This document shows positions 1,288-56,890 of a stretch of 64,000 bases of DNA, one piece after another. This DNA is from Camelus ferus (taxonomy: Eukaryota). The DNA lies in NCBI RefSeq assembly GCF_009834535.1, contig NC_045696.1:57104001-57168000 (forward strand), read 5' to 3'. Both the position numbers and the translations under genes were made by a program. The notes under the pieces were generated by a model that was given only the letters and a program-made list of their open reading frames with translations, was not told where the DNA came from and made no database searches. Every line of letters starts with the position of its first letter. Position 1 is the stretch's first letter.

Positions 1288-1439
1288 AGTTGCATTTGGG
1301 AACTGCAATGGGTTGGCTGTGGTGGATTTTATACAGAAGACAGTTCTGTTAAGCATGGGGACCATTGACCTATATAGATCAAGTGACCTATACCAACGAC
1401 AACCACGGTCTCCTCGAAAAAACAAGCAGTTCATTGCAG
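1288..1439 (+). CDS. STXBP5L: STXBP5L (tomosyn-2) coding exon preceding the hypervariable region: VAFGNCNGLAVVDFIQKTVLLSMGTIDLYRSSDLYQRQPRSPRKNKQFIA
   Basis: Polypyrimidine tract plus ctctcag acceptor (AG at 1286-1287) and donor GCAG|gtagga. 152 nt, ends in phase 1. Translation (in ORF 1244..1450) matches the recalled tomosyn-2 sequence. Confidence 0.96.
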
Positions 1440-3302: not shown

Positions 3303-3374
3303 ACAACTTTTGCATGCGTGGCCTGTCTAACTTTTATCCTGATTTAACGAAACGGATCCGTACTTCTTATCAGA
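3303..3374 (+). CDS. STXBP5L: STXBP5L 72-nt cassette exon, (D)NFCMRGLSNFYPDLTKRIRTSYQ(S)
   Basis: Acceptor ccaaag| and donor CAGA|gtaagt. Phase 1/1, 24 codons. Peptide is in ORF 3197..3394 and matches the recalled long tomosyn-2 isoform. Confidence 0.93.
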
Positions 3375-8650: not shown

Positions 8651-8659
8651 TATGAAGGG

Positions 8660-11600
8660 GTGTATAAAGCAACAATTGTCAAAGCTAAAGAATGAAATAG
8701 ACAAATCTATAAATCTATAATCATAGCTGCGGACTCATCACTTCTCAGTAACTGAAAGAACAAATAGACAAAAATTGGTAAGCCTACAAAAAATGTAAGC
8801 AACTCTCTTAACCAAATTGACTTGACATAAATAGACACCTACATCATACAAATGAAGAATTTTTTTTCAAGTAGACATGGAACATTCACAAATATAGACT
8901 GAATCATGAAACGAGTTATAATGAATTATAAAGGACTGAAATCAAGTAGAATATGTTCCCTGATCATAAAAGAAATTAAATTAGAAATCAATAACCAAAA
9001 TACATCTTAAAATCCCCAAATATTTGAAATTTAAGAATAGCTCATGGCTTCACAAGGAAATCACAGCGAATGTTACAAATATTTTTTAACTTGGTAAAAG
9101 TATGAACACAAAATATCAAAATTTGTGAAGTGTTGCTAAAGGAGTGCCTAAAGGAAAATTTAGAACATTAGATGCTTATATTGGGAAAAAAGAAAGCTCT
9201 AAAATCAATAATCTAAACTTCTTTGTTAAAACACTATTAAAAAAAAAAAAAAAGCATAACCCGCAATAAATAGAAAGGAAATTAAGATCAGAAATCAGTG
9301 AAAATGTGGTCAAACAATAGAGTAGCTCAATAAAATCACAAGATAATTCTTTCAAAAAATTACTAAGATCTATAAAACCCTAGTAAGACTGATCAAGAAA
9401 GAAGAAAAAACATACATAACCAATACCAGGAATAAAAAATGGAGCATCACTATGAATTCTACAGATAAAGTAAGATTATAAACAGCTATATTTCAGTATA
9501 AATTGACAATAAAGATGAAATTAAGATTTTTTGACAGAAAAAATTACAAAAACTGACAAACATTGGAAAATATAAATATACTCCTATCTGTAAAAAAATT
9601 TTCTATTCGAAATTAAATATCCACAGCAAAGAAAATGCAGGCCTCAAATGTCTTTACTGATTTATTCTATCAAACATTAAAGGAAGAAATAACACTAATC
9701 TTATGCAAACAGTTCCAGGGATAGAAAAAAGGGAGGACTCTTCCCAAATGGTTTGAGTCCAGCACAATGTTGCAAAACAAAATCTGATAAATACAGTAAC
9801 TTAAGGAAAGGTGCAAGCCAGTCTCACTCATGAGCATAGACACAAAAATTATAAATATTACCAAATGGAAGACAGATACACATAAGAAAGATAAAATATC
9901 ATAACCAAGGTGGATTTATTCCAGGAATATAAGTTTTATATTTGAAAAATCAGTGCAAAACACCTGATTAACATAATAAAGGAGAAAATATAATCATCTC
10001 AGTACATGCAAAAAATTGTCATAATTTGACATTTATATAAACATTCTTAGAAAACCAGGAATAGAACATGTCCTCTACTGAATAAAGCTCATCTATGAAA
10101 AACCTACAAATACTTAATTATGAAATAATATTGAAATATTGAATGTTTTTCCACTAAAATTGGTAACAAGGGAATTATGTCCACTCTCATCTTTGTCCAA
10201 CCCTGTATTTGATGACTGAAGTAAGGACAAAAGCAAGGTAAAAAATAAAAAACTTGAGTAAAGATTAGAAAGAAAATATTAAAACTTTATTCACCAGTGA
10301 TATTATGATATATGTAGGAAACCCAAAGGAATCTACAGAAAAGCTACAAAAACAATATATGAACTTCACAACGATGATGAATACAAGTCAGTATACAAAA
10401 ACCAATTCTATTTCTACATAATAGCACCAAACATTTGAGAAATGTATTTATTTTTTAAAATACCATGTACAGGATAGACTTTCAGGTAGCAACCTAGGAA
10501 GCACCATGGACAATCTCCAGAGAGAAAGCAGTAACTGGTAAAAACTATTTTTAAAAAAACCAATCGCTTAAACTCTCTAGAAATTGTCCTAAGAGGACAC
10601 AGAAAATGAAGAAACATTTATTCAATAAAATCCACTAAAACTTAGTAAAAAGTGAGAGTCTGTGGACCTGAGCCACAACTTGTACTATACTTTCCTGCCT
10701 TCAGGTTGCCAGCATTTCTTGTCCCCTCCAACCCCAAGATGGAAAGTCCAAATTCCAGGGGAGTGTGGCCAAGAGGTCAGAGGCTCCCTTCCCCTTCCAA
10801 TTCCCTACTAATAGGACAGAAGTTCTACTCCAGTTATTCCAAGTAAAAAACGATGAGGCCCTGAGTGTTCTCACCCCAGCTTGCTCATAGGTCAGAGGTT
10901 TCATGCCAAGAAAAAGTTAAGCTAAGGAGATCAGAGGTAACCACCCCCTGCCCACGTCCAACTAGTGACTCAGAAGATTTGCCCAGAGGAAGAGACACTG
11001 TAAGAACAGTGAACTCTGAAGCTCTTCCCAAAGGAACTAGCTTTATTTATTTGGGAAGTTCAAGCCTAAAAATGCCCTCAAAACCAATGACGTATCTGAT
11101 AGAAATCAAATAGGAGGCAGGTACCTCGTCTTAATTAAGAGTAACCAGCTAGACCATAGGTGAGCTGGTTCACTAGGGAGAACCTAGGAAAGAGACTGCT
11201 AAGAAGACTTCTCCTGGGATTTGAACAGACCTCAAGATTGGCTTCAAATGTGACCCCTGCCCAAATTTAATGTTGAATAATGTATGTCCTAGGGTATTGT
11301 CTAAAACAACAGAGCAATCACCTGGCTGTGACTGTGACATCTAATAGCTGGAAATGATATCAACAGAGGCAGACAACTTGCCAGAGAGATCAGGGAAAGA
11401 GACAGTCAAAGAGAGCCCTGCTAAAATCACGGCTATCCCAGGTGACTGTATGTACACTGAAGGCTGCACCCTCTGAGAAGCATCATCAAAGTCTTCACAA
11501 CGTAAGAAAAATAAACTAAACTAAAATAGTCTCGCCAAGTTACTAAACAATTAAACAAGCAAATAACAACAATAAAAACCAGAGAAGGGGGAGAGAAATC

Positions 11601-14310
11601 AGTAATCAGTATCCAGAATTGCTATATTACCTAAAATGTCCAGCTAACAAAATATTATGAGACATGCAAAGAAACAGGAAAGTGTGTCTCATTCACAGGA
11701 AATAGCAAGGTAACAGACATTGCCTATGAGAGGGCCCAGATGTTGGATTTAACAAAAACCTAATAGTGGCTATTAAAAATATGTTTAAAGAACTAAAAGA
11801 TGCCAAGCTTAAAGACATAAAGCAAACTATGATGATAATGTCTCATCAAGTATAGAATATCAACAAAGAGATGGAAGTTATGAAAAGGACCATATGGAAC
11901 TATCTCATACCATACACAAAAATTAACTCAAAATGGACTACAGACTTGAATATAAAACCCAAAACCACAAACTCCTACAAAAAAACATAGGTGGTAAGCT
12001 CCATGACATGGGTATTGGCAATGATTTTTTTGGCTTTGACACCAAAGTAAAAGCAGCAAAATAAAAATAAACAGGTGGAACCACATCAAACTAAAAAACT
12101 TCTGCACAGCAAAGGAAACCATCAATAAAATGAAAAAGCAATCTACTGAATGGGAGAAAATATTTATAAATATTTTATCTGATAAGGGTTAATATCCAAA
12201 ATGTATAAAGAACTCATACAACTCAATAGCCAAAAAGAAAAAAAAAAAGAATAAAAATGGGTAGAAGATCTGAATAGATGGGGGAGGAAAAAACACTGTT
12301 AGGGTTATTATGTAATTATAATAGAGTAAATGCATATTTCTTATCTTAACTGATTTAAAAAGTAATTTATGAAACAATATGTATGAAATTGTATTGTTAG
12401 GTCTATAATATATAGAAATGTAATATGTTTTCCAGTAACAAAACAAAGGAGTTGAGTAGGAGCAAAGTTGTATTTGAGTAAGCATATGACACCAGACGGA
12501 TCTACCAAAACAAATGAAGAGAGCCAGAAACAGTAAATCAGGTTAATATACAAACTTTATAAATATGTTTGTTCTCCTTTCTTCTTTCAGCTTTTATTAA
12601 AAAACATAAAATTATATAAAGCAATAATTATAACAATATAATATTGGTTTTGTAATACATATGGATATAATATGTATACCAGGAATATATAAAAAGGAAA
12701 GAAAAAATGGAGCTATAAAAAAGTAACATTTCTGTATCTCACTGGAATTAAGTTAGTACACATTTGAAGTAGATTCTGATAAAATGTACATGTTAAGTCT
12801 CAGAGTAACCACGAAGAGCTCGAAAAACATAGTGAAAAAATGTATTAAAGAAATTAGAGTTAACCAGGGAATATTTACTTAATGATAAACAAAGCAGTAT
12901 GTAAGAATTCGAGGAATAAGGAAACATGAGACATACAGAAAACCTAAAGTAAAATGACAGATGTAATCCAACTATATCAATAATAACATTAAATGTGGAT
13001 AGATTAAACATTCCAATCCAAACACAGATTGTTGGACTGGATTTTTAAATAAATCAAGATCCAATTCTGTGCTGTCTGAAGGTAACACAAAAAGATACAA
13101 ATAGGTTGAAAGTACAAGGATGGAAAAAAGATCATGCAAACAGCAACCGTAAGAAAGCTGAAATAGCTCTACTAACATCAGACAAAATAGATTTTAAAGC
13201 AAAAAATTTTGCTAGAATTAAAGAGGGATATTTAAAATGATTAAATGTCAATAAAAATGTTAAAAAAAACATGATTAAATGGTCAATATAGCAAGAAGAT
13301 ATAATAATTATAAACATGCACCTAACTAACAACAGAACTACAAAGTACATGAAGCAAAATCTGACAGAATCAAAGGGAGAAATAGACAAAACAATAATCA
13401 CTGGAAATTGCAATACTCCACTTTCAAATATCGTACAAGAATTAGGCAGAAGGCCAGAAAGGAAATAAAAGACTTGGAAAATGTCATATACAAGACCTCT
13501 ATACTCAAATCTATAGAAAGAAAATGTTTAAACATTATTTAAATGGAGGAAAATACCATGTTTATGGGTTGGAAGAGTGAATATTTTTAAGATGTTTATT
13601 CAACCAAATCTATCTATAGATTTATCACAGTCCAATAACCTACTGTATCTTTTTGTAGAAATTGACAAACGGATTCTAAAATGTACATAGAAAAACAAAG
13701 AATCTAGAATAACTGAAACACTTTTGGAAAAAAACAAAGTTGGAGGATTTCACTACCTGATTTCAAGATGTACTATAAACCTGCATTACTTAGATAGTAT
13801 GGTAGTCAGAAAAACACAAATAGACCAATTATTACAGAATAGATAATCCAGAAGTAGACCCACACATATATGGCCAATTTATTTTTTATTAAGGCTCTAA
13901 TAAAAATCAATGAAGGGAAATCTTTTTAACAATGATGGAACAACTGGACTAATACATAGAGGGTAAAAATGGACCATAATCCCTACCTGATACCATAATC
14001 AAAATTAACTTGAGGTGAATTATAGTCCTGAAAATGAAAGCTAAAAATTAAAAAAGCTTCTTGAAGAAAACCAAGAATGATATCTTTATCACTATGGGGT
14101 AGGCAATGATTACTTATACAGAAATAAAAAAAAATTCACAATAAAAGAAAAAACAGATAAATTGTTCTTAAGGTAAATTAATCTTCTGCTCATTAAAAGT
14201 CATTTTCATTAAGAAAATATAAAGATAAGATAATTCACATACTGGAAGGAAATATTCACAATAACCTACTTCTGACAAAAAACTCTTCACCAAAATATAT
14301 AAAGAATTCT
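8660..14310 (+). mobile_element. Nested cluster of old L1 fragments: ORF2 8660-10460, 5'UTR/ORF1 about 10470-11900, ORF2 piece 11900-12280, inter-ORF/endonuclease 12280-13490, ORF2 continuation to 14310
   Basis: Many recognisable L1 motifs (aattagaaatcaataac, ggatttattccaggaat, aaaattaactcaaaatgga, catcagacaaaatagattttaaa, ctacctgatttcaagatgtactataaa). No intact ORF. Confidence 0.88.
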
Positions 14311-15262: not shown

Positions 15263-15328
15263 GTTTAACTGAGCTGAATGACACTCCAGTTCCTCTGGAA
15301 CTTGAGCGCTGCAAGTCTCCCACTTCAG
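15263..15328 (+). CDS. STXBP5L: STXBP5L 66-nt exon, LTELNDTPVPLELERCKSPTS
   Basis: Acceptor tttcatttttag| and donor TCAG|gtaaac. Phase 1/1. Translated by hand (too short for the ORF track). The RCKSPTS motif is shared by tomosyns. Confidence 0.95.
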
Positions 15329-16449
15329 GTAAACTTGAGTGGTATTTTTCAGGCTCTGGTAATTCACTGCAGTAATCTACTGCCTTATTTTCATTATTCT
15401 TGTAATGTGAAATTTATAACTTTAGAAATTAGATGTAATTTTGTTTCTGAAATTTAATCATAAGTTAAAATAGATTCCAAAATAAAATAGAAATAATTAT
15501 CTTAAATATTTTTGCCTTCCCCAAAAATTAAGATCAGAGGTACGAATGCAATATTTTAAAGACACTTAAAGGAAGGTTATTTTGCAGATATGTGATATAG
15601 TAATAATGCCAAGTAAAAATTGGTAATACACAGAAACTCTGTCTTATAGCTAGAGCTAAATTATTGGGAAATATATACTATAGGTACAGAAGCGTATGAA
15701 ACCATTCTTCTGGACCATAGTTTTGAAACATGAATATTCATTAGCAAAGAAAAAAATGGTAATACATGTCGGAAATAAAAAAATCAAAATAAAGTGTGAA
15801 CCCATTAAAATGTATTAAAAATGTGAGTATCAAGATTCTTAGGAATAAGTCTTTAGGGTATGTGAAAAAAGATGTTAACAGTAGAAATTGTTGGGTGGTG
15901 ACATTGTGAATGATTTGCTTATTTTTTTAAATTTTTATTTGTCTGATTTTTCTATAATGTATATATCTAGTAATGTGTAAATTCTTAAACACCAAAAACA
16001 TTAGGTCTATCTTTGACATTGAATTGTAGGTCTTTTTTCATAGCGTATCAAAAAATAATTCATTGTTATTTAAGTTATTTTTAACTTCATACAAATTTAT
16101 AAACATTTAGTAATCTCTTTAAAAAGCAGTGAAATTTGACTTTTAGAAATTCAGTTAGAATTCTGGTATTTCTTCAGTTTACTCCCTTGAGTCGTTAGTT
16201 GTTTATTCTTATTTTTCAGGAATGTAGGCTGAGTAGAACCTAGTTGTATCCTGTGTAAATTTTTCTTTTAATTATATCTATTTAATCCTTATGTTACTGC
16301 TTTTATTTTAGACATGTTCTCATACATTTACCCTTTCTTTTGCATTTCCTCTGGCATCATTCTAATTTAGGTGTTACACTATACCTAGAATATCACGAAA
16401 ATACTCTAACGGGTGTCTGTGTTTTCCGTTTCTCCCTCTTCGATTTCAT

Positions 16450-19400
16450 TTTGCATATCATGTTCTTTTTTGTTTTCTGTTTTATACAAAAGTAGTATAT
16501 TGTATGCATTTCATTATACTTTGTTTGTTTCACTTTACAGTGTATCTTGCTTTCCATTGCATAAGGTATTTTCTCATTCTTATATATGATATTAATTTGC
16601 ATGCATGTATTATAATTTATTTCACCAATGAAAGGACATTTAGTTTAGTACCATCCTACTGCCTGTGTCAAACAAAAATGCTACAGTGACTAACCTTGGT
16701 ACATTCCTCACTTTAAATGTATGCAGGTATCTAACAGGTATATCTAAATTCCTAAAATCGGAGTTGCTGGGTCAAAGAGTATACACTTTGTCTAATCATA
16801 ATACTCCCCATTGCTCTCCTTGGGGTTTACAACAGTTTTCTCTTCTTCCTGCAATAATATGCAAATACTGGTTATTATTTTTTTTTGAAAGTCTGTTTGA
16901 TAAAAGGGATATGTCAGTGCAGTTTCAATTTATCTTTCACAAATTATAAGCACATTATAAGTGAATTGAATACCTTTTCATATATTTAAGAGCTCTTTAA
17001 ATAATTTTTTGTAAATCATCTAGTCTTATACTTTGTGCATTTTCTATAGTGTTGTTTGTTCTTTTCATAATAATTAATCCCCTTCATAAGTTGAGAAGAT
17101 TTTCCCTTTGTGACATGAGATCCAAATATTTTTCTCAATTTAACTTTTAACTTTGCTTATAGTATATCTTGTCTTAGTGAAGTTTTTTTATAATCAGACC
17201 TTGATCTTTTAAGGACTTCTTTATGCTTAACAATTTAAATACTATCGGTTATCTACTTTTTTTTACGTTTTGGTAAAAATTCCCCTGTCAAGTCATTTAT
17301 CCTTTATAGTTACTTATTTTGTATATTTGTACTTTCTTGGAAAAGACAAAAAATTCATTAGGAAAATTTCTGAAAATACAGTGTACATATGCAAAGATTG
17401 AGAGTTTATCTTTCTTTAATTAGGCTAATATTTGATCTATTTTGCTGTTTATTTAAACCCAAACAATGATTTTATTGAATTTTTTTGGTTTTTTTACTTA
17501 TTTCTGCTTTTATCTTCATTTCCTCCTCTTTCCTTCATTTTATTTTTCCCTTTCTAACTTTTTGTGGTAGATGCTTAATTCATTTATAATTTCTTACATA
17601 CTGATGTGAGTTAACAAGGCTAAATTTTCCTTTGAATATGCATTAAACATATAACTTTTGATAAATTATGATTGCATTAACATTTTCTATATAGTAGACA
17701 ATTAGTTTATATTTCTTTGGCCCAAGAGTTATTTAATGTAAATGTGTGGCATCAGTTAGCTTTAAGTGTTACCTTATTAATTATGTTATTTAAGTCATAC
17801 ATGTCCGTACTTATATTTTAATGACTTGTCAAAGATGTGGAAAAGGTGAATTAAAATATTGTATTAATAGCATATTTCTATTTTTCCTTGTGTCTGCTGT
17901 TTATTTTTTTAAATATTTATGTATAAATATTCAAAAATATATCCACAAAAAGTGCATTCTTTACCATTAATCACCATTGTTCATTTCTGTTGTGTCCTTC
18001 ACCTGAATTCACCCTAGTTGTTAATACCACAACTCTTGCTTTACTTATTTGTAATTCTTTTGTATACCTTGGCTTACCTCTTTTGGGGCAAATTGTTTTT
18101 TAACTGAGGTATAATATATAAATCTCAAAGTGCATAATTCTTAAGAGTTAAGGTAGACTAGTTTTCCCAAGTGAATATTCCATGTAAACATATCCAGATC
18201 AAAATATGAAATGTTACTAGAACCCCAGACACCTCCCTTATGCCCCTTTCATCCACTAACCCTCACAAACTTACCTATGATTCTGACTTTTATCATAATG
18301 TTAGTTTTGTGGATTTTGGACTCTATTATTACTGAACATTTAGGTGGTTTTCAGTTGGGGGCTATTATAAGTAAAGCTGTTAGACTGGTACAAAACTAGT
18401 CTTGTACAATTTTAATACAAATATAAACTCATTTCTGTGTTACATGTGTCTGGGAGTGGAGTTTTGCGGTCATAGGGTATGCATATATTCAGCTTCAGTA
18501 AATGCTATTGCGTTTCCTAAAGTGCTTGTGGGGAGGGTACAGTTCAGTGGTAGAGTGCCTGCTTAGGAGGTAGAAGGTCCTGGGTTCAATCCCCAATATC
18601 TCCAATTTAAAATAAATAAACCTAATTACCTCCTCTGCTAAAAATTTAAAAAAATTAGAAATAAAAATTGCTTGCACCAATTTCACTTCCATTAACAGTG
18701 TATAAAAGTTCTGTTTGTTACAGATACTTGCCAATGTTTTTTCCCCCCAGTCTCAGTCATTCTGGGGTGTACATAATGCTATCTCATTGTGGAATTAAAA
18801 TGAATTACATATCCCTGATGTCTAATGATTTTGATGAACTTTTATGTTTATTGGCTATTTTTAACATTCTCTTTTATAAGATATTCAAGTCTTTTACTCA
18901 TTGTTACTATGTTGCCAACTTTTTCTTTCACTATAAGGAATTCTGTGTATGTATGTAGATACATACATAGACGTCTTTTTGTTGCATGTATACAGTACAA
19001 AATATTTTTCCCATTCTGTGCCTCACCTTTTACTTTCTTAAAGGTGATCTTTGATAAACAGAAGTTTTTAATGCTAATATAATTCAATTTATCAATATTT
19101 TCTTATTATTAGTGCTTTATGTGTTATGTTCTTTAAAAAATCTTTGTCCACCCCAAGGTCATAAAACTATTTCCCTATCTTCTAGGAGCCATATTGTTTT
19201 ACCTTCACTTTTAAGTTCAAGATCCACTTGATATGTATTTCTGTGTCTATTGTGAGGAAAGTGTTAAAGTTTATTACTTTCATTTAGGTGTCCATTTATG
19301 ACAAAACTCTCATTTCCCCCAATGCACTAAAATGGTACTTCTGCCACAAATTAGCCTACTTTACCATGTATATGTGTGTTTCTAGACTTTTTTCTATTTC

Positions 19401-20115
19401 ATTTCCATGTTTATCTGTCATTTATCCAGTTCCACACTGCTCTAACTGCTGTAGCTTTATATAGGGCTGACAGTGTAGGTTCTCCAATTTTGTTTTTGTG
19501 GTTTTCTTTCAAGAATATTATAGTTATTTTAGGTCTTTTGTGTTTCCATATAACTTTTTAAAAAAATTTATCAGTTTGCACACAAAAAAACATACACTTG
19601 GATAGTGACTGCAGTTTTATTGGATCTATAGATCAATTGGTCAGAATTAATATTCAACAATAATGAATTTTCCATTTAGTGTCTATGTGTCTACTTTCAG
19701 TAATTAAAGTTTTTAGCTTTGTAGAGGTCTTGCACATCTTTCACTAGATTTATTCCTCTGTATTGGATTTTTATGTTGTAAATTTTTTATCTTTTTTTGT
19801 GGCTAAATATAAAAATACAATTAATTAATTACTTATTTTATACAGTTTTTAATACAGTGTTTAATCCCAGAAAACTTGATAAATTTAGTTAATTTCAATA
19901 ATTTGTAAATTCTTTTAGATTTTCTATATATCCAATTATGTTCCCTGTTAAAATGACAGTTCTATTTCTTCTTTCTAAAGGAAGAAATTAGCTAGGACTT
20001 CCAAAACAGTGTTGAATAGATGTGGTTTTAGCAGATATCTTTCTTTTTTCCCCAATCTCATATATACATCCTTCAAGATTTCATAGTTAAATTATAAGGA
20101 TTGCTATAGGTTTTT
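16450..20115 (-). mobile_element. Old L1 (L1ME-like) fragments, antisense
   Basis: T-rich reverse-strand L1 ORF2 and 3'UTR motifs (tgaacatttaggtggttttcagttgggggctatta, gctaggacttccaaaacagtgttgaataga). Confidence 0.75.
18529..18665 (+). mobile_element. Camelid-type tRNA-derived SINE (Vic-like)
   Basis: ggggagggtacagttcagtggtagagtgcctgctt...gtcctgggttcaatcccc...aataaacctaattacctcc plus A-rich tail. Approximate TSD aaagtgcttg/aaattgcttg. Confidence 0.88.
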
Positions 20116-20199
20116 AGCAGACATCCTGCTTTTAGCCCTCTGCCTATGTTTCTTCTATTGTTAGAGCAGATCTGGAAACAGCATCACTGTCATTTTATT

Positions 20200-20242
20200 T
20201 ATGTATGTATGTATGTATGTATGTATGTATGTATGTATGTAT
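20200..20242 (+). repeat. (TATG)n microsatellite
   Basis: About 10 perfect TATG units read directly. Confidence 0.97.
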
Positions 20243-21599
20243 TTAGCAAGGCAGACTCAGAGGACTGTGCATGCAATCAAACATATTGCTTCAAAACAAG
20301 AAGGTTTTGACTACTTTTGTAGTATGTTATTTGGAACAGAAATGATTGACAGGCAGCACCAGGCTTATATAGGAATGAAATACCAGCTGCAAGACAGAGG
20401 AATCAGGTTCATCACTTGCCAGATGAGAGTGAAAATCTCTTTTACAAACAAGTTATTCATATCGCCACAATTTTCTAGAATTCACAATTTGTCTCAAAAG
20501 TTTTATTCTTATTTGTTGTGCTGAAAACATAGATCCCTCATTGTGAATGGAGAAAAATTTGCCTGAAGCAATGGTTAAAACCATAGACACCAACTTCATG
20601 AGATATATAGAGCAGTAATTCCTAATGCTTTTGTGAAGGATTTTTAAATGTTCAAAATTTTTAATAGTGGTGTTTTCCACTCTAAACACTGATAATTTCA
20701 TTAGGCCTATAAGAAAATATGGAGTGCCCAACAGAGAATTCAGAGAAACACTAAGGGCCAAAAAGTAGAGTGGTTTTGTAAAAATTCTCCATAATTCTTC
20801 ACAATACAATTAAATATTTTCTATGATCAGAAACAATGATGATGATCATGGAAACTCCACAAAAGAATTGCCTCAAAGGGGCAGTGTTCTCAAAAATAGT
20901 GAGCAGAAAGAAAGGACCTACACGTTTTATGCAGTCATTGAATATTTGATGCTGCTCATAGGGACTAAATAAGAATCAGACACAGTTTGCGCAGCTTTCT
21001 TAAATTAGGCATTCATTAAAGAATGGTTATGACTAGATTTACAATTTTAACAAGTATTACCTACCAATGTTCTAGACCCCAAATAAAATCAGTGACCAAG
21101 GGACCTAAAAATAATAGTAACCCACAATTTTCCAGACAGTAGTTTCCTTTTTTTCTTATGTAACACAACACCACTGTGACTTTTTCTGAGGAGAAAACTG
21201 AAGCTTAGGGTATTTAAATAAGTGGAGCTAGAATCCCAACTTAGTTATATTTGGTTGTAAATCCTAAGCATCCCCCCTGATTTTCATTAATAAAATAGTA
21301 ACAAGAAATATGGGAATTACAAAAAATAATCACAATCAAAATTATATGACATCCAAGCAGTGAGAAAGTAAGAAATTGCTGAGTTATAAAGAGACAATGT
21401 TTTAACAAAGAGATTCAAAAAAGCTTATATATATTTTGCATGAAACATCAGAAATACAGTTTACCATTTAATTTCCAGGAAAAACTGGTTTTGAAAGTAA
21501 TTTTTAGTTTTGATAGTTTATAAAATCACCAAACTATCAAATTTTGAATTTATTAAGACTTATTTGCTATAATATTGTAATCAACATTAGTGGAGTATT

Positions 21600-21800
21600 T
21601 GAATGCAAACAAGGTATTTTTCATGTATATTATCATATTTAGCCCTACAGCAATCCTGTAAAGTCGGTACAATTCTCATTTTATATGAGTGGAGAATTAT
21701 GACTAGGAAAAATAATTCTATAACTTGCCCAAGGTTATTCTGCTAGGACATGGCTTAGTCAGAACCAACCCAAATTCTTAGACTTGAAGGTCCTCTGACC
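21600..21800 (-). mobile_element. MIR SINE fragment
   Basis: attctcattttatatgag...taacttgcccaaggtta resembles the MIR core. Confidence 0.65.
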
Positions 21801-24800
21801 CCAAATTACTTGACCTCCTTTTGTGTGCTTTAAAAAAAAAAGTGTGTTGAATAACCTAGTTCTCTCTCGGAGTTTATAATTCAAGACAGACAAAACAGAA
21901 AAAAAGTTTCATGATCATTTAACACTTGTTCATATGACAGTAACAAAAAGTCACTGATTCATTATCATTGTCTAGATAGGAATGTAATACATATTTTAAG
22001 GTGGCAAGAAAAGTAGAGTCATGACATTAAACTTTTGTATGCTGGGGCCAATTCCAAGAAATATGCCTCTTTGCCTGCCTGTATCTTAGCCATTTCTGAA
22101 AAAAAGGAGAGGGAAATGGCCACAAAATTAGAAGCATGTAGATCTTTCATTGCTCCACCGTGGCATGGTGACCACAAAATGTTTGTGTATGTATGTGGTT
22201 TAACTATACCTGTATGTATACACCTCTGTCCTATCTTCGTTTGTAGTATAGGGAAGATAGACAAATGAAGTTTACTACTATAGTCCAACCAGTCAGTTAA
22301 TTAATCAATAGATAGATAAACTTTACAAACATTTAATCCAAATAACTGTTTATTTTAATTTAGTGTTAGATTTATTTATTTTACAGAAAATATCTAGGCC
22401 ACAGAGGTGGTTATCTCTATATCAGGAAGACTGTGTTTCTTAGCGGAAAGGACATAACTTTGGAGTCAAGATAAATTTGATTTTACCCTACCACTTTCTA
22501 CCAATATAACGTTAGCCAAGTTTCTTAATCTTAACTGTGTGCTAGTGTTCAGAACATAGATTCTCAATAATATATATTAGCGGTTATTATAAAAGCAGTG
22601 ATGAACATCCATGGCCTAAAGAGACTGAATTTGTTCTCCCTGACTATTCTAAATTTCCAAATAATAGTTGTAGCTTAGACATAACAAACTAGAAATACTT
22701 CATGAAATCAAAAAGTCAATACAGTTGTTCCTAATCAACAAACAACTTATCAGAAGCTTTGAGTTAGAAATTTCTAACCTAGCATTTTGTTATTTCCCAT
22801 TAAAGTAGTAGCCATATTCAGACTGATTCAGGGTACACTCTGTTCCTAAAATTTTGATTCAAATGTGGAATCAAGGATCTGACTAAAACTTACTTGAAGC
22901 CAATATAACATTCCTCAGATGAGCCAGGCTGCACTATTCATTGACTTTGAATTGAATCAGGAATTAGAAAAAAGGCATATGAATATACAGATGATAGAAA
23001 ATACAGTCAAGACATACTGAAGTCTCTCAGGCAAAACCCTGTTGTAATGCCTGAAGTTCTGTTCAAATTTAGGGCTGAGCATATGACCTCATTCTGGTAT
23101 AAGCTATGGTAAACCATCAGACTACCCTGCCTTATTACTGTAACTAATCTGTTTTGGGGAGGCAGAAAATCTAGGAGTAGAGATGAATAGTCTTGAAAAG
23201 ATTTACAATCTGGTGCTATTGTAGGGCTTGGCCATCACCTGATCTTTAGGCCTGAATTTATAGATTAATATTAATATGTATTTTGCCATCAGCTAATACT
23301 GTCACTTATTTGTGTCACCTTTGGTCTCATGCCATCCTAACAATTTCTAGGTAAGTAGTAATGTGATAGATGTGATTAGGTAAGTGATTAAATCCTATCT
23401 GTGGGGGACACTTTATTTCAAATTTTATGTTTTCTTAAACTCAGATTTAGTGACATATAATTTACATTAGGATAAAATTCACCTTTTTAGTGCACAGTTA
23501 TGAATTTTCTTTCTTTTCTTTTTAATTTTGTTTTTATCTTCAAAAATGTAAGCCAAAACATATTAAAGTAGCAAGAATTTACTGACAATTTTCCCAGAAT
23601 CTAACAGGACTAGGACCATAAGAAGTCAAACTGTTGTAAGTCTAATACTTGATGCAGCAATATTCCCTGCCCCATAGCCAGATCATCTATGGAACTATTC
23701 TCTGTATTACTGTGAGCCAAGACACGTAGTTTTTCAAGGTGTTGAAGGATTAAAGATAGTATTCTGTGTGAAGATACACAGCATGACAGATTTTTTGGGA
23801 GAATAAGCCCATTATGCATCAAATATGTGATGTCACTCTTGAAAAGACAGTGGACTCTTAGGAAGTACTGCTGTACAGAGATTGATTAGACATTAGGGAT
23901 ACAATCCCTGTCTTTAGAGAACTCAGTTTCAGGATGTTAGCTGGTAGTAGAGTAAAAAAAAAAATCAAGTATAACAAAATGTGTTATAGAAGAGATGTAC
24001 ACAAGATGCTATGAAAAGTTAAGATAATGGCACCAAATGAAGCCTTAAGTTTGAAGCTGCCTTCAGAAAGATGGTGATTTTTCAGCTGTCTTGAAGGATG
24101 AGTAGTTTACTAGTGGTTGGACAAGTGAGAACATTACTCTGTGCATAAATAACAGGAGAGTTGTTATTAACATTGTTATTAAAGAACTTCACCAATTAAT
24201 CACACCATCTAATCATTCTCTTTTCCTCCCCGAATTACACAATTGAGGATAGGGTCTGTAAGGGGGCCCCCAATTTTCAGGTAGAAAGTTGTCTATAGGA
24301 AGCCAAAAAGGCAGGTGATAAATTGGAGAGCGTATCCCCAAGAGTGGAGCAGATCTGAGAGCCACAGTAAATTAGATATTAGGCTAATAGAAAGGGACTG
24401 TTTGCCCTCTTTTTGAAAGCATCTCTGTAATCCATTTTTGAAGTAATTAATACTGTATAGATATGTTGCAACACCTTATTTTAAAACAAAATAGAAAATT
24501 AAAAGGATAAATTATGGAACAAATCCTTACATTATAAAGAATTACTTCCTACTTTCAAAATTAAGTGAAAGATTTTAAATAGTAAACATTCCACTCCCTC
24601 AGTCCATCTGAATTATGTATCAATTTACAAAATATACTTTATTTGCAACCTCTTCTGAAGCACAAATACCACGTATATTTATTTAGTTTGCCATGTTTTT
24701 ATATAAATACAATCTGTGCTGCTAATTCTAAACACAAATTACTGTAATTTGATTTACTGATTTCTCCTTAATAGAATTATTTAATGACTTTTCATAGAGA

Positions 24801-24879
24801 CAACTGCCTATTGCTATTGTTTTTATTAGAATGATAATACTTAGATTTCCTTTAGTAAGTTGTTTAGCATGCCATATTG

Positions 24880-25030
24880 TAGTCAGCAAGTTACAACCCA
24901 CAGGCCAAATCCAGCTTGCCACCTGTTTTGTTATGAGTTGTGAATTAGAACAGGTTTTTAATTTTTAAATGGTTAAGAAAAAAAATCAAGATATGAGTAA
25001 TATTTCATGACTCACAAAAAGTAATATTTA
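24880..25030 (+). mobile_element. MER58B-type DNA transposon, 5' portion
   Basis: gtcagcaagttacaacccacaggccaaatccagcttgccacctgtttt...tttttaaatggttaagaaaaaaaatcaa. Confidence 0.8.
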
Positions 25031-26108
25031 GGTTTCTATTATAGTTAGGTTTTATAAAATATAAGATGTATTCCAATCATTCTAGCTGAAATATTAGAGA
25101 TAGTATCAAGAATATTATTTGACAGATAAGAAGATTAAGCTGCAAATTGATGAAGGGATTTTTCAGTTTTATAACTAGGTGTTAACAATTCAGAGATTTG
25201 TGAGCCATGTTTTCTGATTTTAAATTGAGTGTTCTTCCTGCTATATTATCTTCCATCTTTATTTTAAAATAACTTTCATAGTTGTAAAGAAGATCACTCA
25301 CTACAAGGTATAAATTAATTGGTAGTATCATTTTGAGTCTTAATATAAGTATTGACAGAAAATATTTTAACATGATTCCCCCAATGCCTTTCTTTATGTG
25401 ATAACATAGATTCCAGTTAAATATTTTACCGATGCCCAATGTAAAATTTTTATTAACAGATAATGAGGCAAGTTTTCAATAAATAATAGGAGTTTTCTTG
25501 GTTTTTTCATTTTCTAACAGCTTGATTTATAATACAATTAAATTTATTTTCAAATTTTTTTATTTTCCAGATTTTTCTTATCTACTGAATTTAACATTTA
25601 GTATTCAGTACTGAAGGCATTTCATCTGCCATAGGCATGGTAAAGTTTACTCAACTACATCACATTACACCGATAATAGAATTCTATTTCAAAAAAATAT
25701 TTACAGAGTACATCGGTTTTTACCCTTATCATTGTTATTTATGATATAAGCTTATACATTTGTTGCAGTATTTCTTTACCTGTTAGATTTATCTGAAATT
25801 GATTTTGGGTTCTTTCCAAAATAAATAAGAAATCACTTCTCATGCCACATGTGAAAAAAACTATGTAAAAGATTTACTTATTTACTGTAAGAACAATTGC
25901 TTTTCTCATATTTCTGCTTGCATGTTAAATATTTACTACTGAATGACAACAAACTATCACTGAACGGTATTTCTGCTTCCATACATGCTCCCTAAGTATA
26001 ATGTTCATCAGGATCTTAATAATTTTACTGTAAAACATACTGCTCCCTCACACTCCTCTTTAATTTTATATATTAACAACTGCCTTTTTCCTTTTTCTGT
26101 TGTTTCAG

Positions 26109-26159
26109 TTAAAGGATCAAGAAAGTTAAGTCTGCCAACAGATCTTAAGGCTGATCTTG
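26109..26159 (+). CDS. STXBP5L: Candidate STXBP5L 51-nt cassette exon, (V)KGSRKLSLPTDLKADL, paralogous to the tomosyn-1 segment AKMSRKLSLPTDLKPDL
   Basis: Long polypyrimidine tract tgcctttttcctttttctgttgtttcag| and donor CTTG|gtacgg. Phase 1/1, no stop, in frame with neighbouring exons. Peptide is visible in ORF 25985..26188. Confidence 0.8.
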
Positions 26160-28129
26160 GTACGGTAGGCAAAAGCCAACAATTTTAAGTTTTGTTGCAT
26201 TCATTTGGCTGAACATTTTAACCAACCAGTCCATGAATAACAAGTTTTGTAGATGGCAGTGTTTAATGGCTTTCCAAAAAAAGCTTTCTTAAAAATCACC
26301 ATACAGTTCTGTTGGCAGCATTCAACATTTTGTTTGTTAACAATCATTTTACAAAATTATGTTTTATAAATCATTACACGCCAAAGTATTTTTGTTTGTT
26401 TATTTAATTGTGAAAATGTTTTTAAACATTGACTAGTCACGTACATGGATCCTTTGTGACTGTACTCATGTAAATGAGCATCGTTTTTTCTGGAATTATT
26501 TTTCCTATTTTGTATATTAGTATCATTTAGAATTAATGCTGTTTAACAACAACAACAACAAAATCCAATACCAAAAAGAATAGAATTCTTGCCATTTAGG
26601 AAATTTATAGGAAATATGATTCACTTTAGTTTATTTTTTGTGGTGGTCACAGACTTATTCATGATTCTAACTCTGAAATAAGTAAGGTCTTATTAAATAG
26701 GCTTTCATAAATTTTTCTTTAAGAACTTTCTGCTTGTTTCAAAACTGTTTTCCTTTTTTGAAATTTAATTTAATTACCTTTATTTTCCTCTCCTTTATTC
26801 TGACTTAAAGTTGTAGCATTAAATCCTATTAATGTCATGGTTAAAATAAGAAAAATACAATAATTAGTCCTGCATTATGCTTTAGGGTATACAAAGCTGT
26901 TTCACATACATTATTTGATTTGATTTTCTTAGCAACCCCAAGATGGTTATCACTATCCCCAGTCTTCTATTTCAGAGCAGAAACAGAGGTTATATTGTTA
27001 ATAAATTGTATAATTAGGATTTGAACCTACATCACAGAACATAATACCCCAAGTTTATGGAGCATATTCACATACCTCATTTCACTGTATCTAAATTAAC
27101 TTTTAGTCAATAAATTATTACATTTAAAATCTGATTACATATAATCTTTGATGAATTTGATTAAATTGGATAATTATGTTACAGTATTTTTAAAATGCAA
27201 AGTACTAATATATTCACTACTTGTTATGAAGTTAATTAGTATTTTACTAGTGTAACTGATGTCAAAGGAAAAATCAACATTCTAGTTTCATTTATTGACC
27301 TACTACCTATCAGACGCTATACTGTAAGATTTGAACACATTATCTGAGATAAGATAGGTAATATTGTTCCCACTTTACAAATAATTAAATTAAGGCTAGA
27401 AAAATTCAAATGTATCTAAGGTCATACAACTAATAGCAAAACTGAATTTAAATCAACAATGTCATTGCAAAGCTTGTAATTTTACAACTGCCTTTCATCT
27501 TGTATAGCATGTACCGTGACAGATGTTGAATGAAGACTATTTAAAGAACACTTTTCTCTAGAGAAATACACATTTTGATATTCATTCAGATAATATTCAC
27601 ACATCATAATTTCCTATCATAAAGGAAAAATAAAAAAGATTCCCAACCCACTGCTATATTAGAAGTAGCAAAGAAAGCTCTTAGTTTTCATTTTAATCTG
27701 GAGGTCAGTTAGGCATGGTTGTTATTAATAAACATTAATAAACAGTTTCTACAAATGTCAGTCTTTCAAAGTCTCCAATTATCTCCTTCCCAGTTGCTTC
27801 ATTCTCACTATTTTATGCATACTTTAAGCAAAGATGAATTATGAAAACTCACATATAAAAGATAAAATAATTAAGTGCTTATCACTTTACAAAAGGATTT
27901 TTTTGAAATTGAAAGGATTCACAATAAAATTTCATTCCCTATTTCTAAGTATGTTGTCAATGTAATTTCATTTTTAAAACTTATTTCCCACAAATTACAG
28001 GAAAAAAATTACAAGGATTCTGAAAGAGGATAAATGTCTTTATGTATGTAAATTCTTCCAACATGAAACTTTGGTGTAAAATATACCCTGAATTGCTTAT
28101 AACATGGCTTTGGGAAGATTATTTTCCAG

Positions 28130-35994: not shown

Positions 35995-36032
<38 letters not shown>

Positions 36033-36340
36033 GATAGACATAGACATAGGTAGACATAGACAGACAGACATTTTTTATACACATCTTCCTTATCCATTCA
36101 TCTGTTGATGGACACTTAGGTTGCATCCACATCTTGGTAATTGTAAATAATGTTGCTATGAACTTTGGGGTACATGTATCTCTTTGAATTAGTGTTTTTG
36201 GTTTTTTGGATATATACCCAGGAGTGGAACTTCTGGGTCATATGGTGGTTCTATTCTTAGTTTGAGAAACCTTTATACTGTTTTCCACAGTGGCTACACC
36301 AATTTACATTCCTGCCAACAGTGTATGAGGGTTACCTTTT
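35625..36340 (-). mobile_element. L1 3' end, antisense, containing a (TG)n tract at about 35997-36027
   Basis: Reverse ORF MWMQPKCPSTDEWIRKM...ILPSATIWMVLEGVMLSEVSQ, typical of the L1 ORF2 C-terminus. Confidence 0.9.
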
Positions 36341-36344
36341 TATA

Positions 36345-38135
36345 TTTTAATATACTTTATGTTTTAAAGTAATTTTAAATATTGCATATTCCCCTTGCCT
36401 ACCCCCCACACACTCAGCCTCTCCCACTTATTAACATCCTCCATCAGAGTGGTGCATTTGTTATAACTAATGAACATGTATTAATACATCACCATTATCC
36501 CAAATGCATAGTTTACATTGGGACTCATACTTGATGTTTTAACGTGTATATAATGATGAATACATTCCATTATACAATACATTTTAATGTAATATAGAAT
36601 AGTTTCATTGTTCTAAAAATCTGTGTCAGCCTATTCATCACCTCTTTCCCCTTAATTCCTAGCAACCACAAATCTTTCTACTGTCTCCATAGTCTTGCCT
36701 TTTCAAGAATGTCATACATTTGGAATCACACAGTATGTAGTCTTTTCAGATTGAGTTCATTTAGTAATATGCATTTAGGTTTCCTCTATGTTTTTTTCAT
36801 AGCTTCATAGCTTATTCCTTTTTAGCACTGAGTAACATTCCATTGTCTGGACGTACCACAGTTTATCCATTCAGGTTTTTGTGTGGACATAAATTTGCAA
36901 CTTCTTTTGGTAAATTCCAAGGAGCATGATTCCTGAATCATATGGTAATTTAAGTATGTTTAGTTTTTTAAGAAACAAACTATATTCCTACAATCAATGA
37001 ATGAAAGTTTTTGTTGTTCCACGTCCAATTGCTAGCATTTAGTGTTGACAGTGTTTTGGATTTTCACCATTCTAATAGGTGTGTAGTGGCTTCTCATTCT
37101 TGTTTTAATTTGAGATTTTAAATATTTTCATATGCTTACTTGCCATCTGTCTTCTTTAGTTTGGTATCTGTTCAGATCGTTTGCCCATTTTTTACTCAGG
37201 TTTTGTGTATTTTGGTTAATAGTTCTTTATCAGATGTATCTTTTGCAACTATTTTCTTCTAGTCTGTGGCTTGTCTTCTCATTCTCTTGATAGTGTCTTT
37301 TACAAAGCAGTTTTTCATTTTAATGAATTCAAATTTACCAATTTTTTTCTTTTATGGATTGTGCCTTTGGTGTTGTATCTAAAAAGTCACCAAACCTACA
37401 GTTATTTACATTTTCTTCTGTATTTTCTTCTAGGAGCTTTATATAGTTTTGTGTTTAACATTTAGGACTATGATCCATTTTGAATTAATTTTTGTGAAGT
37501 GTGTTAAGTCTGTGTCTAGATTTGTTTTTTGTATATGTACATGTCCAGTTGTTGTAGTACCATTTTTTGAGAAGACTATCTTTTCTCCATTGTATTGGTT
37601 TTGCTTCTTTATCAAAGATCAGTTGACTGTATTTGTGTGGATCTATTTCTAGGCTCTCTATTCTGTTGCAATGATGTATTTATTTTTTTCCACCAATAAT
37701 ATTCTGTCTTCACCACTTTAGGTTTAAAGTCAGTCTTGAAGTCAGATGGCATCAGTCCTATGACTTTGTTCCCCTCCTTCAGTATCGTATTGGTTATTCT
37801 GGGCCTTTTGCCTCTCCATCTAAACTTCAGAATGTTTGTCAACATCCATGAAATAACTTGCTGAAATTTTTATTGGGATTGTGTTGAATCTGTAGATCAA
37901 GTTGGGAAGAAATGATGTCTTGACAATATTGAGTTCTCCTATCCATGAACATGGAATCTCTCTCCACTTGTTTTTCAGTTTCCTCTATCTGTAAGGATTT
38001 TGGGGGGGGGGGGTAGTTTTGTAGTTTTCCTCATGTAGATCTTGCACATACTTTTTTGGATCTATAAGTATGTTATTTTTGAGGGTACTAATGTAAATGT
38101 TATTGCTTTGAATTTCAAATTCTGTTGCTAGTATA
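36345..38135 (-). mobile_element. L1MC/MD-like element 3' end and ORF2 fragment, antisense
   Basis: ccatcagagtggtgcatttgttataactaatgaac 3'UTR motif, and tttttattgggattgtgttgaatctgtagatcaagttggg in ORF2. Confidence 0.85.
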
Positions 38136-39592: not shown

Positions 39593-40081
39593 CGGATAGT
39601 CCTTGACTTAGTGATTCAACTTACAATTTTTCAACTCTATGATGGTGCAAAAGCAATGCACATTCAGTAGAAACCATACTTCAAATTTTGAATCTTGATC
39701 TTTTCCCAAGCTAGCAATGTGTAGTACAATCATCTCTCAAGATGCTAGGTAGCAGCATTGGGCCACAGCTCCCAGTCAACCACATGATCATGAGGGTTAA
39801 CAACTGATACACTTCAAATCATTCTGTACCCATACAAACATTCTATTTTCCACCATAAGTACAGTATTCAATAAATAAATTTATAAATTGTTATAAAAGG
39901 CTTTGTGTAAAATAATTTTGCTCAACTGTAGGCTAGTAAGTGTTCTGAACATCTTAAATGTAGGCTAGGCTAAGCTATGATGTTTGACAGGCTAGGTGTA
40001 TTAAATTCATTTTTGACTTAGGATATTTTCAATTTACAATGGGTTTATCAGGATGTAATCTCATAACTCGAAGAAGATTTG
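39593..40081 (-). mobile_element. MER47/Tigger5-type Tc1-mariner non-autonomous element, TA-flanked, inserted in L1 ORF1
   Basis: taggctaggctaagctatgatgtt...aggtgtattaaattcatttttgactta and cattcagtagaaacc motifs. TA dinucleotides at 39591-39592 and 40082-40083. Confidence 0.85.
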
Positions 40082-42891
40082 TATTTCATATATTCAAGGA
40101 GATAGAAGAAAGCACCAGTATGTTAAGAGACATGGGAAATATAAAAAAGATCTGAGTTAAACTTCTAGAAGTAAAATATACACCAGATGGGATGAACAAC
40201 AGAATTGACACTGAAAAAGAAAAATTACTGAACTCAAAGATGTACCACTCAAAATGAAACAGAGGAAAAAACCAGAATCAGTGAACAGAGAATGAGTCAG
40301 CTATTGTCCAACTTCAAGCTGCTTAATAAACATACAATAGGAGTCCCAGGAAAGGATAGAGATGATGGGACAGAAAAATGTTTGAAAAAGTAATGCCAAC
40401 AATCTTTCTAATTTGATGAACATGTAAATCCACAGATCAAAGAAGGTTAATGAACTATGAACTTCAAGTATAAGAAACATGAAGAAAATTACACCAAAGC
40501 ACGTCATAATCAAAATTTGTAAAAAAAAAAAAAAAAAAAAGCCAACAACAGCAACAAAATGTGTGTGTGTATATATATATATGTATATATATATGTATGT
40601 ATAAACACATAGAGGAACAAATATAGAAGAATAACAGCAGACTTCTCAAATTATATGAACTAACAGACAGTGGAAGAACATTTTCAAAGTACTGAAAGAA
40701 ATTGTCAATCTACAATTCTATACTTGACAAAGTATCATTAAAAAATGAAGGTAAAATAGATATTTCACAGACACAAAAGCTTAAAGAATCCAGTATTAGA
40801 AAATCAGCACTACAAGAAACATTATAGGAAGCCCTTCAGGAAAAAGGAAAATACCAAAAGGAAATCTAGATCTACACAGAAATGGAGAACAATGGAAATG
40901 GTAAATACATGGGTAAGTAAAAAATACTTGGTTTGTAAATCTCTAAAAGATAACTGATGACTGGAAACATCCAAATATTCATCAATGGGTAAACAGTTAA
41001 ACAAATTGTGGCATATCCATACAGTGGAATACTTCTCAGCAATGAAAAGAAATGAGCTCTTGATACACACAACAGCATGTTGGAATTGCAACCTATTCAC
41101 AGTGAGTGAAAGAAGCCAGACAAAAATCAAGTAAAAACTGTATGATTGCTCTAATACACAATTCTGTGAAATGCAAATTAATGTATAGTAACAGAAAGTA
41201 CATGAGTGGTTGTTGAGGGTAGAGGCCAATGGGGAGAGGCAACATAGAGGGATTACAAGTATAAATGAGGAAACTGAGGGGAGGTGATGGATGTATTATT
41301 TTTAGTGTGAAATTAACAACAGATCAGTGGTTGTCAGTTTTAAATGTGTACAGTTTATTGTATGTCAATTAACCTCAACCTCTGCTGAGGAATGTACTTG
41401 ACAAATAAGTATCAATTATCCAAGAATGAGGGGGAACAATGACTTTTTCAGACATCCAAAAACTAGCAGTTTACCATCTGTGGACTGTTAGTTTACATTT
41501 TAAGTGCTAGCCAATGCAGTTAAGTAAAGGGAAAATATATTATGTATATGTATTCAAAATAATGTGACTAAAGTTTTTATATTTATAGGGGATAAAATTT
41601 TATACCTGAAATCTCAAGAGAATCAACTTAAAAACTAATAAAAAAATAGAGTGACTTTTTAATATATGGCTGGTTACAAAATTCATACCCCAGAAGAAAA
41701 GGCTTTGCTACAAATAAACAAAAGTCAACTTTAAAATGGGGAAACTTATTTATAATGCTATCAAAAAGATAAAATATGTAGTAATAAACTTGAATCCAAA
41801 GGATCTGTGTAAAAATGATTTTAACCTCTATTAAGGAACATTAAAAGGACTTGAATTAATAAGACATACATTGCTTTGTTGCTTTTGGACAAGAAGACTT
41901 GAAATTGGTATACAGTTTATATTTTAGAAATAAATAATTCCACTGAAAATAACTGATTTTTCAGAAGAGTAAAACTGATGATTTAAAAATTCATCTGAAA
42001 AAGTAACCATGTAATATAGGCAGGAAATTCTGAAAAACAAGAGTCATAAATGAGGTCTAGCCGCACAAATAAGTTAAATACAGTATAAAATTACAGTTTA
42101 CAGTTTAAAACAAATTATATAACTGTTACTCATACCAGTTTTGGTACAGATGTATAAAAAAAGTTGAATCAGTAGAACAAAACAGGAAATACAGAAAGAG
42201 ACCCAAAAGCATACAGAAATTTTGTCATTGTAAATAAGTAGGCTTGAAAGTCAGGTAGGTCATTCAATAAATAAAGATAGGTCATTCAATTGTTGTTGGG
42301 ATGACTAACCTAGGCATCTGAAAAATAATCTCCTTAAACCAAAGTAAGTTCCCATAAAAAAAAATATAAATGTATAGAGAAAAACCATAAAAATGCTAGA
42401 AAAAGACATGAGAAATATATATTACAATATTCTTGGAGTAAAGAAGGCTTTGCTAAAGATAACATAAAATTCAGTACCAATATAAAACCAAAACAAACAA
42501 ATGGTTGATAAACTTCATTATGTAAAAATAGAGTAAAAAAGGACAGCCTGCAATCAATCTGACAGATAAGACTAGTTTCTATAATGTGCAAAGTGCTCAT
42601 ACATTAAAAACAAGGAAGAAAACACTAGAAAAATTTACAAAGGTTAAGTACTGGGAGTTCACTGAGAAAGAAATATGCGTCTTTAAAATAAATTAAAATG
42701 TGTCCAATACTCATTATTAAAGAAATGAATATTAAACAGTATTTTTCCCATCAACAAATATCAAAGTATTGTACAAAGCAAAATTTTGGTGAAGATATGA
42801 GGAGACTAGAGTTCTTATATACTGTTGGTGGGAATGTAAATTGCTTAAACCGTTTTGGAAACCATTTGCAATCAAAGTCTAAAATGCATAT

Positions 42892-43050
42892 TTTTTTTTC
42901 CTTTTTTTGGTGGGGGTAGATAATTGTTTTTATTCATTTTCTTTTATTTATTTACTTTTAAAAAAAATTTAACGGAGGTATGGGGGATTGAACCCAGCAC
43001 CCTCATGCATGCTAAGCATGCACTTTACCACTGAGCTATAACTGCCACCT
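42892..43050 (-). mobile_element. Camelid-type tRNA-derived SINE, antisense
   Basis: ggggattgaacccag...gcatgctaagcatgcactttaccactgagctata. TSD taaaatgcatat at 42880-42891 and 43051-43062. Confidence 0.88.
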
Positions 43051-54426: not shown

Positions 54427-54597
54427 ATCATGTAAATGGACATTGCACAAGTCCAACTTCTCAGAGTTGCAGTTCTGGAAAACGTCTTTCTAGTGCTGAC
54501 GTTTCAAAAGTAAATCGCTGGGGTCCGGGAAGACCGCCATTTCGAAAAGCACAGTCAGCTGCTTGCATGGAGATTTCCTTACCAGTCACAACAGAAG
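54427..54597 (+). CDS. STXBP5L: STXBP5L 171-nt exon, (D)HVNGHCTSPTSQSCSSGKRLSSADVSKVNRWGPGRPPFRKAQSAACMEISLPVTTE
   Basis: Acceptor ctttttctccgtacag| and donor GAAG|gtatgt. Phase 1/1, 57 codons, open frame. Matches the recalled tomosyn-2 hypervariable region. Confidence 0.95.
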
Positions 54598-56650: not shown

Positions 56651-56890
56651 AAAGTCGAGAAAATTCCTATAATCGTTCTAGAAGCTCTAGCATCTCCAGC
56701 ATTGACAAAGATTCCAAAGAGGCAATTACAGCACTATACTTCATGGAGTCCTTTGCTCGGAAAAATGACTCTACTATCTCCCCTTGTTTGTTTGTTGGAA
56801 CTAGTCTGGGAATGGTGTTAATCATATCCCTAAACTTACCTTCAGCAGAGGAACAAAGATTTACAGAGCCAGTCATGGTATTGCCAACTG
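56651..56890 (+). CDS. STXBP5L: STXBP5L 240-nt exon, (E)SRENSYNRSRSSSISSIDKDSKEAITALYFMESFARKNDSTISPCLFVGTSLGMVLIISLNLPSAEEQRFTEPVMVLPT
   Basis: Acceptor atttccatag| and donor ACTG|gtaaga. Phase 1/1, overlaps ORF 56743..56967. Matches tomosyn-2 where the WD40 fold resumes. Confidence 0.96.

Follow-up and report, generated by a model that had tools for sequence, protein, structure and literature searches.

A 51-nt segment on the + strand (26109..26159) of a 64,000-nt stretch of Camelus ferus DNA, referred to here as the window, is on sequence grounds a conserved and ancient optional exon of STXBP5L, the gene of tomosyn-2; it is already present in the automated annotation of many vertebrates and has apparently gone unstudied in print. 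The reading as a whole, held with moderate confidence, is that this 17-aa cassette was inherited together with a twin in tomosyn-1 (STXBP5), and that it gives tomosyn-2 a PKA site and a SUMO-type lysine. Tomosyn-2 is described, in the literature passages available, as a restraint on insulin secretion and transmitter release and as a mouse diabetes-locus gene. Use of the exon would place a fraction of tomosyn-2 under direct cAMP/PKA input, which would be invisible to the published experiments because these, in the accessible portions of the reports, were done with the xb, b, m and s isoforms. The interest is confined to specialists, as the exon is already auto-annotated and its mechanism is carried over from tomosyn-1; the automated models are known, and what is new is that a characterised exon of tomosyn-1 has a counterpart in tomosyn-2, seemingly undiscussed in print.

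The host gene is STXBP5L, as two constitutive exons of the window match deer STXBP5L at 97.5-98% versus 59-66% for human STXBP5; these identities also point to a placental mammal as host. Through tblastn with deposited STXBP5L proteins the exons were mapped, all on the + strand: the exon preceding the variable region (1288..1439), a 72-nt alternative exon of 24 aa found in some deposited isoforms and missing from others (3303..3374), a 66-nt upstream exon that ends in KSPTS in phase 1 (15263..15328), a 171-nt cassette exon of 57 aa with a phase-1 start (54427..54597), and a 240-nt exon, also with a phase-1 start, that closes the variable region (56651..56890). The intron that holds the 51-nt exon is 39.1 kb long, with the exon 10.8 kb from its start; the exon end at 15328 and the exon starts at 54427 and 56651 are all phase 1, so that the frame is kept with either downstream partner and the segment can be added or omitted without a frame shift. 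A single SLM2/Sam68-repressed exon, numbered 22, 23 or 24, is described in the available parts of PMC3636136, PMC5199341, PMC7409371 and PMC11077083; it measures 171 nt in PMC5397175 and 57 aa in the supplement of PMC5199341, again as far as these sources are accessible. By length, the exon at 54427-54597 is this regulated exon of the mouse literature, and the 51-nt exon is ruled out as a candidate for it.

Other cassettes are seen in this region. A partial tblastn match at 20350-20421 marks a remnant (20353..20422, +) of a cassette that is 93 nt (31 aa) long elsewhere among mammals; its last 23 codons are conserved with an 87.5% match, one flanking residue counted in, no match to the first 8 was found in 15329-26100, and AT stands in place of GT at the donor. 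A possible new acceptor is located just before 20353. This is apparently a decayed copy of the 93-nt cassette kept by other therian mammals, either through lineage-specific loss or through an assembly error; this second cassette and the SUMO consensus around the K730 equivalent, discussed below, both go beyond the preliminary description of this DNA. Fish STXBP5L models (P0451, P0204, P0285 and related ones) carry an unrelated cassette of ~35 aa between KSPTS and the 51-nt exon, which occupies the slot of the therian 93-nt exon. Shark, lungfish, amphibian, turtle and bird STXBP5L models (P0080, P0101, P0110, P0118, P0179, P0193) hold a further cassette of ~34 aa after the 171-nt exon; no match to it was found in window positions 54598-56650, and it was likely lost in mammals. 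Long blocks with strong AT skew of either sign span 8001-14000, 16001-20000, 36001-38000 and 40001-50000 of the window; judged from the skew, old LINE-1 insertions would give such blocks.

The 51-nt segment contains no stop, is bounded by AG and GT, has phase-1/1 boundaries and a length divisible by three, and encodes VKGSRKLSLPTDLKADL. Its acceptor consists of a polypyrimidine tract with a CAG at 26106-26108 (26080..26108, +; pyrimidine fraction 0.88 at -20..-5), and it ends at a weak in-frame donor, TTG/GTACGG, with the GT at 26160 and a second GT at 26165 (26160..26170, +). This donor is the weakest of the six exons scored, with 5/9 consensus matches against 7-8/9 for the others, and a crude filter applied to 15400-54400 passes 11 stop-free, frame-keeping AG..GT segments (from 8 acceptors); for both reasons the splice signals alone are not diagnostic. 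The peptide is more informative. Against human STXBP5 isoform a (NP_640337.3, P0481) VKGSRKLSLPTDLKADL is identical at 14 of 17 positions, while the next best of the 127,900 six-frame 17-mers in the window reaches only 7/17 against the tomosyn-1 peptide; the exon therefore stands above chance. The preliminary description, made from the letters alone, had proposed a stop-free phase-1/1 segment about 10.8 kb into the intron and had given a 14/17 identity to tomosyn-1; signals, frame and coordinates are borne out by the sequence, and the identity is now a measured value.

Several smaller features surround the exon. The pyrimidine tracts of the 51-nt (26080-26089) and 171-nt (54409-54418) acceptors both start with CTGCCTTTTT on the + strand; a shared regulatory element is possible. 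A single TGCATG, an RBFOX-type motif, is found at 25919-25924 (+), 190 nt upstream of the exon, with 0.10 expected per 300 nt; a scan for motifs of the neural microexon programme (RBFOX, SRRM4 type) returned this one TGCATG upstream, a TGC at -28 and none downstream, all as single occurrences. No array is present at the exon, and a tandem-repeat origin is ruled out. In the PDB, 10 matches were returned (Lgl1/2, Sro7, the tomosyn SNARE helix, WD40 proteins), and no best stretch covers the exon region. A 541-nt stretch around the exon is contained wholly or partly in 20 of the 24 sequencing runs listed, four of which are on record as RNA; the RNA runs hold 52-100% of its words and are silent on splicing, and because the stretch is ~90% intron, its presence there is not evidence of expression.

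The second GT, five bases past the donor, raises the question of a dosage-control ('poison') exon, in which use of 26165 would yield a 56-nt frameshifting exon and message decay. Two ab initio models, from sheep (P0006) and Scotinomys (P0022), read DL-G-T beyond the donor; this readthrough is compatible with a conserved tandem donor. However, the amino acids are conserved from shark to mammal, and 136 of 138 tallied rows join directly after DL, these two models being the only exceptions; a role in dosage control is thus considered very improbable.

In deposited STXBP5L models the exon is widespread. A query with the 240-nt exon, which is blind to the cassette, recovered the peptide in at least 19 models (19 of the best 120 of 299 matches), and 12 of 65 further cluster members hold it as well; over the region-spanning STXBP5L rows that were not chosen for the exon, it is found in 30 of 166. 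A pig-model query that includes the exon junctions returned 107 new rows among the best 120 of 187 matches, and all 107 carry the exon. The range extends over shark, bichirs, sturgeon, bowfin, teleosts, frogs, turtles, birds, marsupials and placentals; carriers outside mammals include Carcharodon XP_041066818.1, Polypterus XP_039601878.1, Danio XP_005167782.1, Xenopus laevis X4, Pelodiscus XP_075761280.1 and Apus XP_051467693.1, and mammalian carriers include koala XP_020841554.1, Loxodonta XP_010591229.1, Odocoileus XP_070322131.1, Phyllostomus XP_035874040.1 and Peromyscus XP_052596603.1. Within single clusters of predicted models the exon is optional, being present in 5 of 10 Apus (swift) isoforms and in 7 of 12 bichir isoforms (Polypterus/Erpetoichthys). 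The core RKLSLPT[D/E]LK-[T/A/S]-DL is found in 150/150 motif-bearing STXBP5L-type rows among 586 proteins fetched, a count of isoforms rather than species that is inflated, as 107 rows come from the exon-seeded search and rows were picked by motif. In 16 motif cores of placental rows the peptide is identical to that of the window.

These comparisons change one part of the preliminary description, which had called the exon hidden: it already stands in many RefSeq XP_ and UniProt models, as the same description had itself suspected for predicted isoforms. The three junctions it proposed (15328 to 26109, 26159 to 54427 and 26159 to 56651) all occur in deposited models, and the comparison with orthologous models finds frame and peptide kept from shark to mammals. 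All carriers are computational models, and four (P0006, P0022, P0093, P0103) are plainly ab initio; RefSeq alternative models are usually backed by RNA-seq introns. That the carriers are predictions, and that 11 intron segments pass the crude filter, could be taken to mean that the segment arose by chance as a pseudo-exon, or that one gene model passed an annotation artefact on to the next. Against the gap between 14/17 and a background maximum of 7/17, and against lineage-specific variants across jawed vertebrates (an additional residue in teleosts, making 18 aa; position 15 occupied by T, A or S), which fit long-term coding constraint, such an origin is scarcely credible.

The sampled distribution has a gap in primates and Mus. 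The exon is absent from 11/11 primate and 6/6 Mus rows sampled, among them the curated mouse isoform m (NP_001108085.1), mouse X1 (XP_006521947.1) and two human-labelled rows; the expectation that canonical tomosyn-2 lacks the peptide thus holds for curated isoform m of mouse and for the human rows sampled. In the available text of PMC3188574 four mouse tomosyn-2 isoforms (xb, b, m, s) are named, without the 51-nt exon, and the accessible passages of PMC5397175 on mouse-brain RT-PCR over this interval mention 171-nt and +93-nt products and no +51 product. A description of the exon, or of LSLPTDLK, did not appear in the literature found, in which subscription journals are thinly covered and supplementary files may list the exon; a 51-nt exon goes unmentioned in the accessible parts of PMC3188574, PMC3636136, PMC5199341, PMC7409371, PMC11077083 and PMC5397175, no description of it was found with those of PMC10984984 (primer rows of the supplement), PMC10965968, PMC10436566 and PMC5529015, and there were no hits in 5 supplement files of PMC4317164, as far as these are searchable; this human micro-exon catalogue may still list it. 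In its accessible part, PMC13232099 reports novel isoforms of STXBP5L and other genes from long reads of human cortex, with no detail.

It can be argued from this gap, together with the weakest donor of the six exons, that the exon has a function in fish, amphibians, reptiles, birds and part of the mammals, yet persists in mouse and primates as a near-silent leftover, and would be of little importance where tomosyn-2 has been studied. However, models of murid and cricetid rodents (Apodemus P0064, Scotinomys P0022, Peromyscus P0128) and of treeshrew (P0044) keep the whole peptide, and the sampling behind the human and mouse absence is weak, covering just 15 of 545 members of one main mammalian cluster and 15 of 687 of the other; a leftover of this kind is considered unlikely. 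The weak donor and the absence from the curated isoform are also in line with low or cell-type-specific inclusion, and within the preferred reading of a conserved optional exon minor splicing of the exon, dependent on tissue, is likely in this animal.

The homology to tomosyn-1 extends beyond one pairwise comparison. A query with a tomosyn-1 fragment found AKMSRKLSLPT[D/E]LKPDL in all of the best 120 of 745 matches, and the tomosyn-1 core RKLSLPT[D/E]LK-x-DL is present in 123/123 motif-bearing STXBP5-type rows of the 586 proteins. In fish tomosyn-1 (P0304, P0329) the module boundaries match those of tomosyn-2, and a row without the module exists. RKLSLP was found in 4 of 149 new distant representatives, all four vertebrate; no row was identified as lamprey, hagfish or amphioxus. 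The exon thus likely predates the split between STXBP5 and STXBP5L; the two exons were probably inherited from one gene, duplicated ahead of the diversification of jawed vertebrates. The earlier proposal of a cassette kept in both paralogs is thereby upheld in sequence, boundaries and position.

The residues that matter in tomosyn-1 have aligned counterparts in the tomosyn-2 exon. Along the 1116-aa rodent rows of STXBP5, the serine of RKLS falls at position 724 and the lysine of LKPD at position 730 (3/3 checked); codons 26129-26131 and 26147-26149 of the window encode the serine and the lysine aligned to S724 and K730, respectively. The PKA consensus is R-R/K-x-S-hydrophobic, which RKLSL of the 51-nt exon fits, and LKAD fits the SUMO consensus; both are sequence matches. 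The serine, which the preliminary description had put forward as a PKA-type site, is by alignment with the rodent rows the counterpart of S724. A scan for [RK][RK]x[ST] finds no site over the stretch in the curated m isoform, while the 171-nt exon contributes KRLSS and the 51-nt exon RKLSL. According to the accessible passages of PMC2171531, PKA acts on tomosyn-1 mainly at S724; phosphorylation there weakens the binding of syntaxin-1 and promotes SNARE assembly and release, S724D reduces syntaxin-1 binding in vitro to ~35%, and S724A reduces cAMP potentiation of release. The available text of PMC3948876 gives the SUMO consensus as psi-K-x-D/E and locates the SUMO site of tomosyn-1 at K730 in SLPTDLKPDL, where K730R abolishes SUMOylation; it names m, which contains the 17-aa exon, as the most abundant hippocampal tomosyn-1 isoform, reports that tomosyn-s1 lacks K730 through exon skipping, and describes tomosyn-2 as lacking the K730 site. 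Vesicle targeting of tomosyn-1 is reported, in the passages available, to remain intact after loop 2 deletion or K730R. At the gene level the statement on tomosyn-2 is contradicted by the exon in the window, which keeps the serine and, six residues on, a psi-K-x-D lysine; psi-K-x-D is kept in 150/150 motif-bearing STXBP5L-type rows, with LKAD in the window. Modification data for tomosyn-2 at these residues were not found in the literature covered.

By analogy with tomosyn-1, inclusion of the exon would likely provide tomosyn-2 with a site for PKA and, next to it, a SUMO-type lysine, and it is likely that PKA phosphorylates this serine if the exon is included. The phospho-serine would then reduce sequestration of syntaxin, so that cAMP lifts the tomosyn-2 brake in exon-including cells; that phosphorylation loosens the brake on vesicle fusion, with splicing deciding the cAMP response by this route, is marginally favoured. 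On the other side are the primate and Mus rows without the exon and the lack of a +51 product in the mouse RT-PCR passages; tomosyn-2 is also already reported, in the available part of the review PMC10436566, to be phosphorylated and degraded in beta cells, with no mention of the exon, and a separate KRLSS motif is supplied by the 171-nt exon.

The module may instead act mainly in docking or turnover, where a phospho-serine with an invariant +2 proline binds 14-3-3 and the lysine is SUMOylated or ubiquitinated, setting the level or location of tomosyn-2. R-x-x-pS-x-P is a 14-3-3 binding pattern, and R-K-L-S-L-P is kept in 273/273 motif-bearing rows (150 STXBP5L-type and 123 STXBP5-type), as is psi-K-x-D in the 150 STXBP5L-type rows; however, the rows were picked by motif and this invariance is partly by construction. 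The phosphorylation-linked degradation of tomosyn-2 (PMC10436566, available part) would suit this role, whereas S724D alone was enough to cut syntaxin-1 binding of tomosyn-1 in vitro (PMC2171531, accessible passages), and no paper linking tomosyn or STXBP5 with 14-3-3 was found, as judged by titles and the start of abstracts. A main role in docking or turnover is thought rather unlikely, and it is compatible with the preferred reading of a conserved optional exon with a PKA site, the two not being exclusive. The boldest extension is tentative, a possibility rather than an expectation: that jawed vertebrates, humans among them, make a never-cloned tomosyn-2 isoform with the full PKA/SUMO module (possibly with 14-3-3), that splicing switches cAMP control in particular neurons or endocrine cells, and that the tomosyn-1-specific view is an artefact of exon-skipped clones.

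Compared with what is deposited, the predicted RefSeq and UniProt STXBP5L isoforms (XP_070322131.1, XP_035874040.1, XP_005167782.1, A0A8D1KZ94) hold the peptide and the proposed junctions; however, they bear automatic names with no mention of the PKA/SUMO homology, and none was seen from primates or Mus. The known tomosyn-2 cassettes (the xb/b/m/s isoforms and the 171-nt and 93-nt exons) share with the 51-nt exon the gene, the variable region and the phase-1, frame-keeping type, but in the accessible literature the regulated exon is 171 nt and the only other named extra is +93 nt. The tomosyn-1 cassette of the m and b isoforms differs from the tomosyn-2 exon at the N-terminus (AKMS versus VKGS) and in the residue before the final DL (P versus A, T or S); the variable region of tomosyn-2, unlike that of tomosyn-1, has an extra 57-aa cassette after the 51-nt exon, and the tomosyn-1 exon stands in the curated human NP_640337.3 while its tomosyn-2 counterpart is seen only in predicted models. 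Both exons encode 17 aa, 14 of them identical, and have in common their boundaries, the slot after KSPTS and optional inclusion, with the RKLS serine and the psi-K-x-D lysine in alignment.
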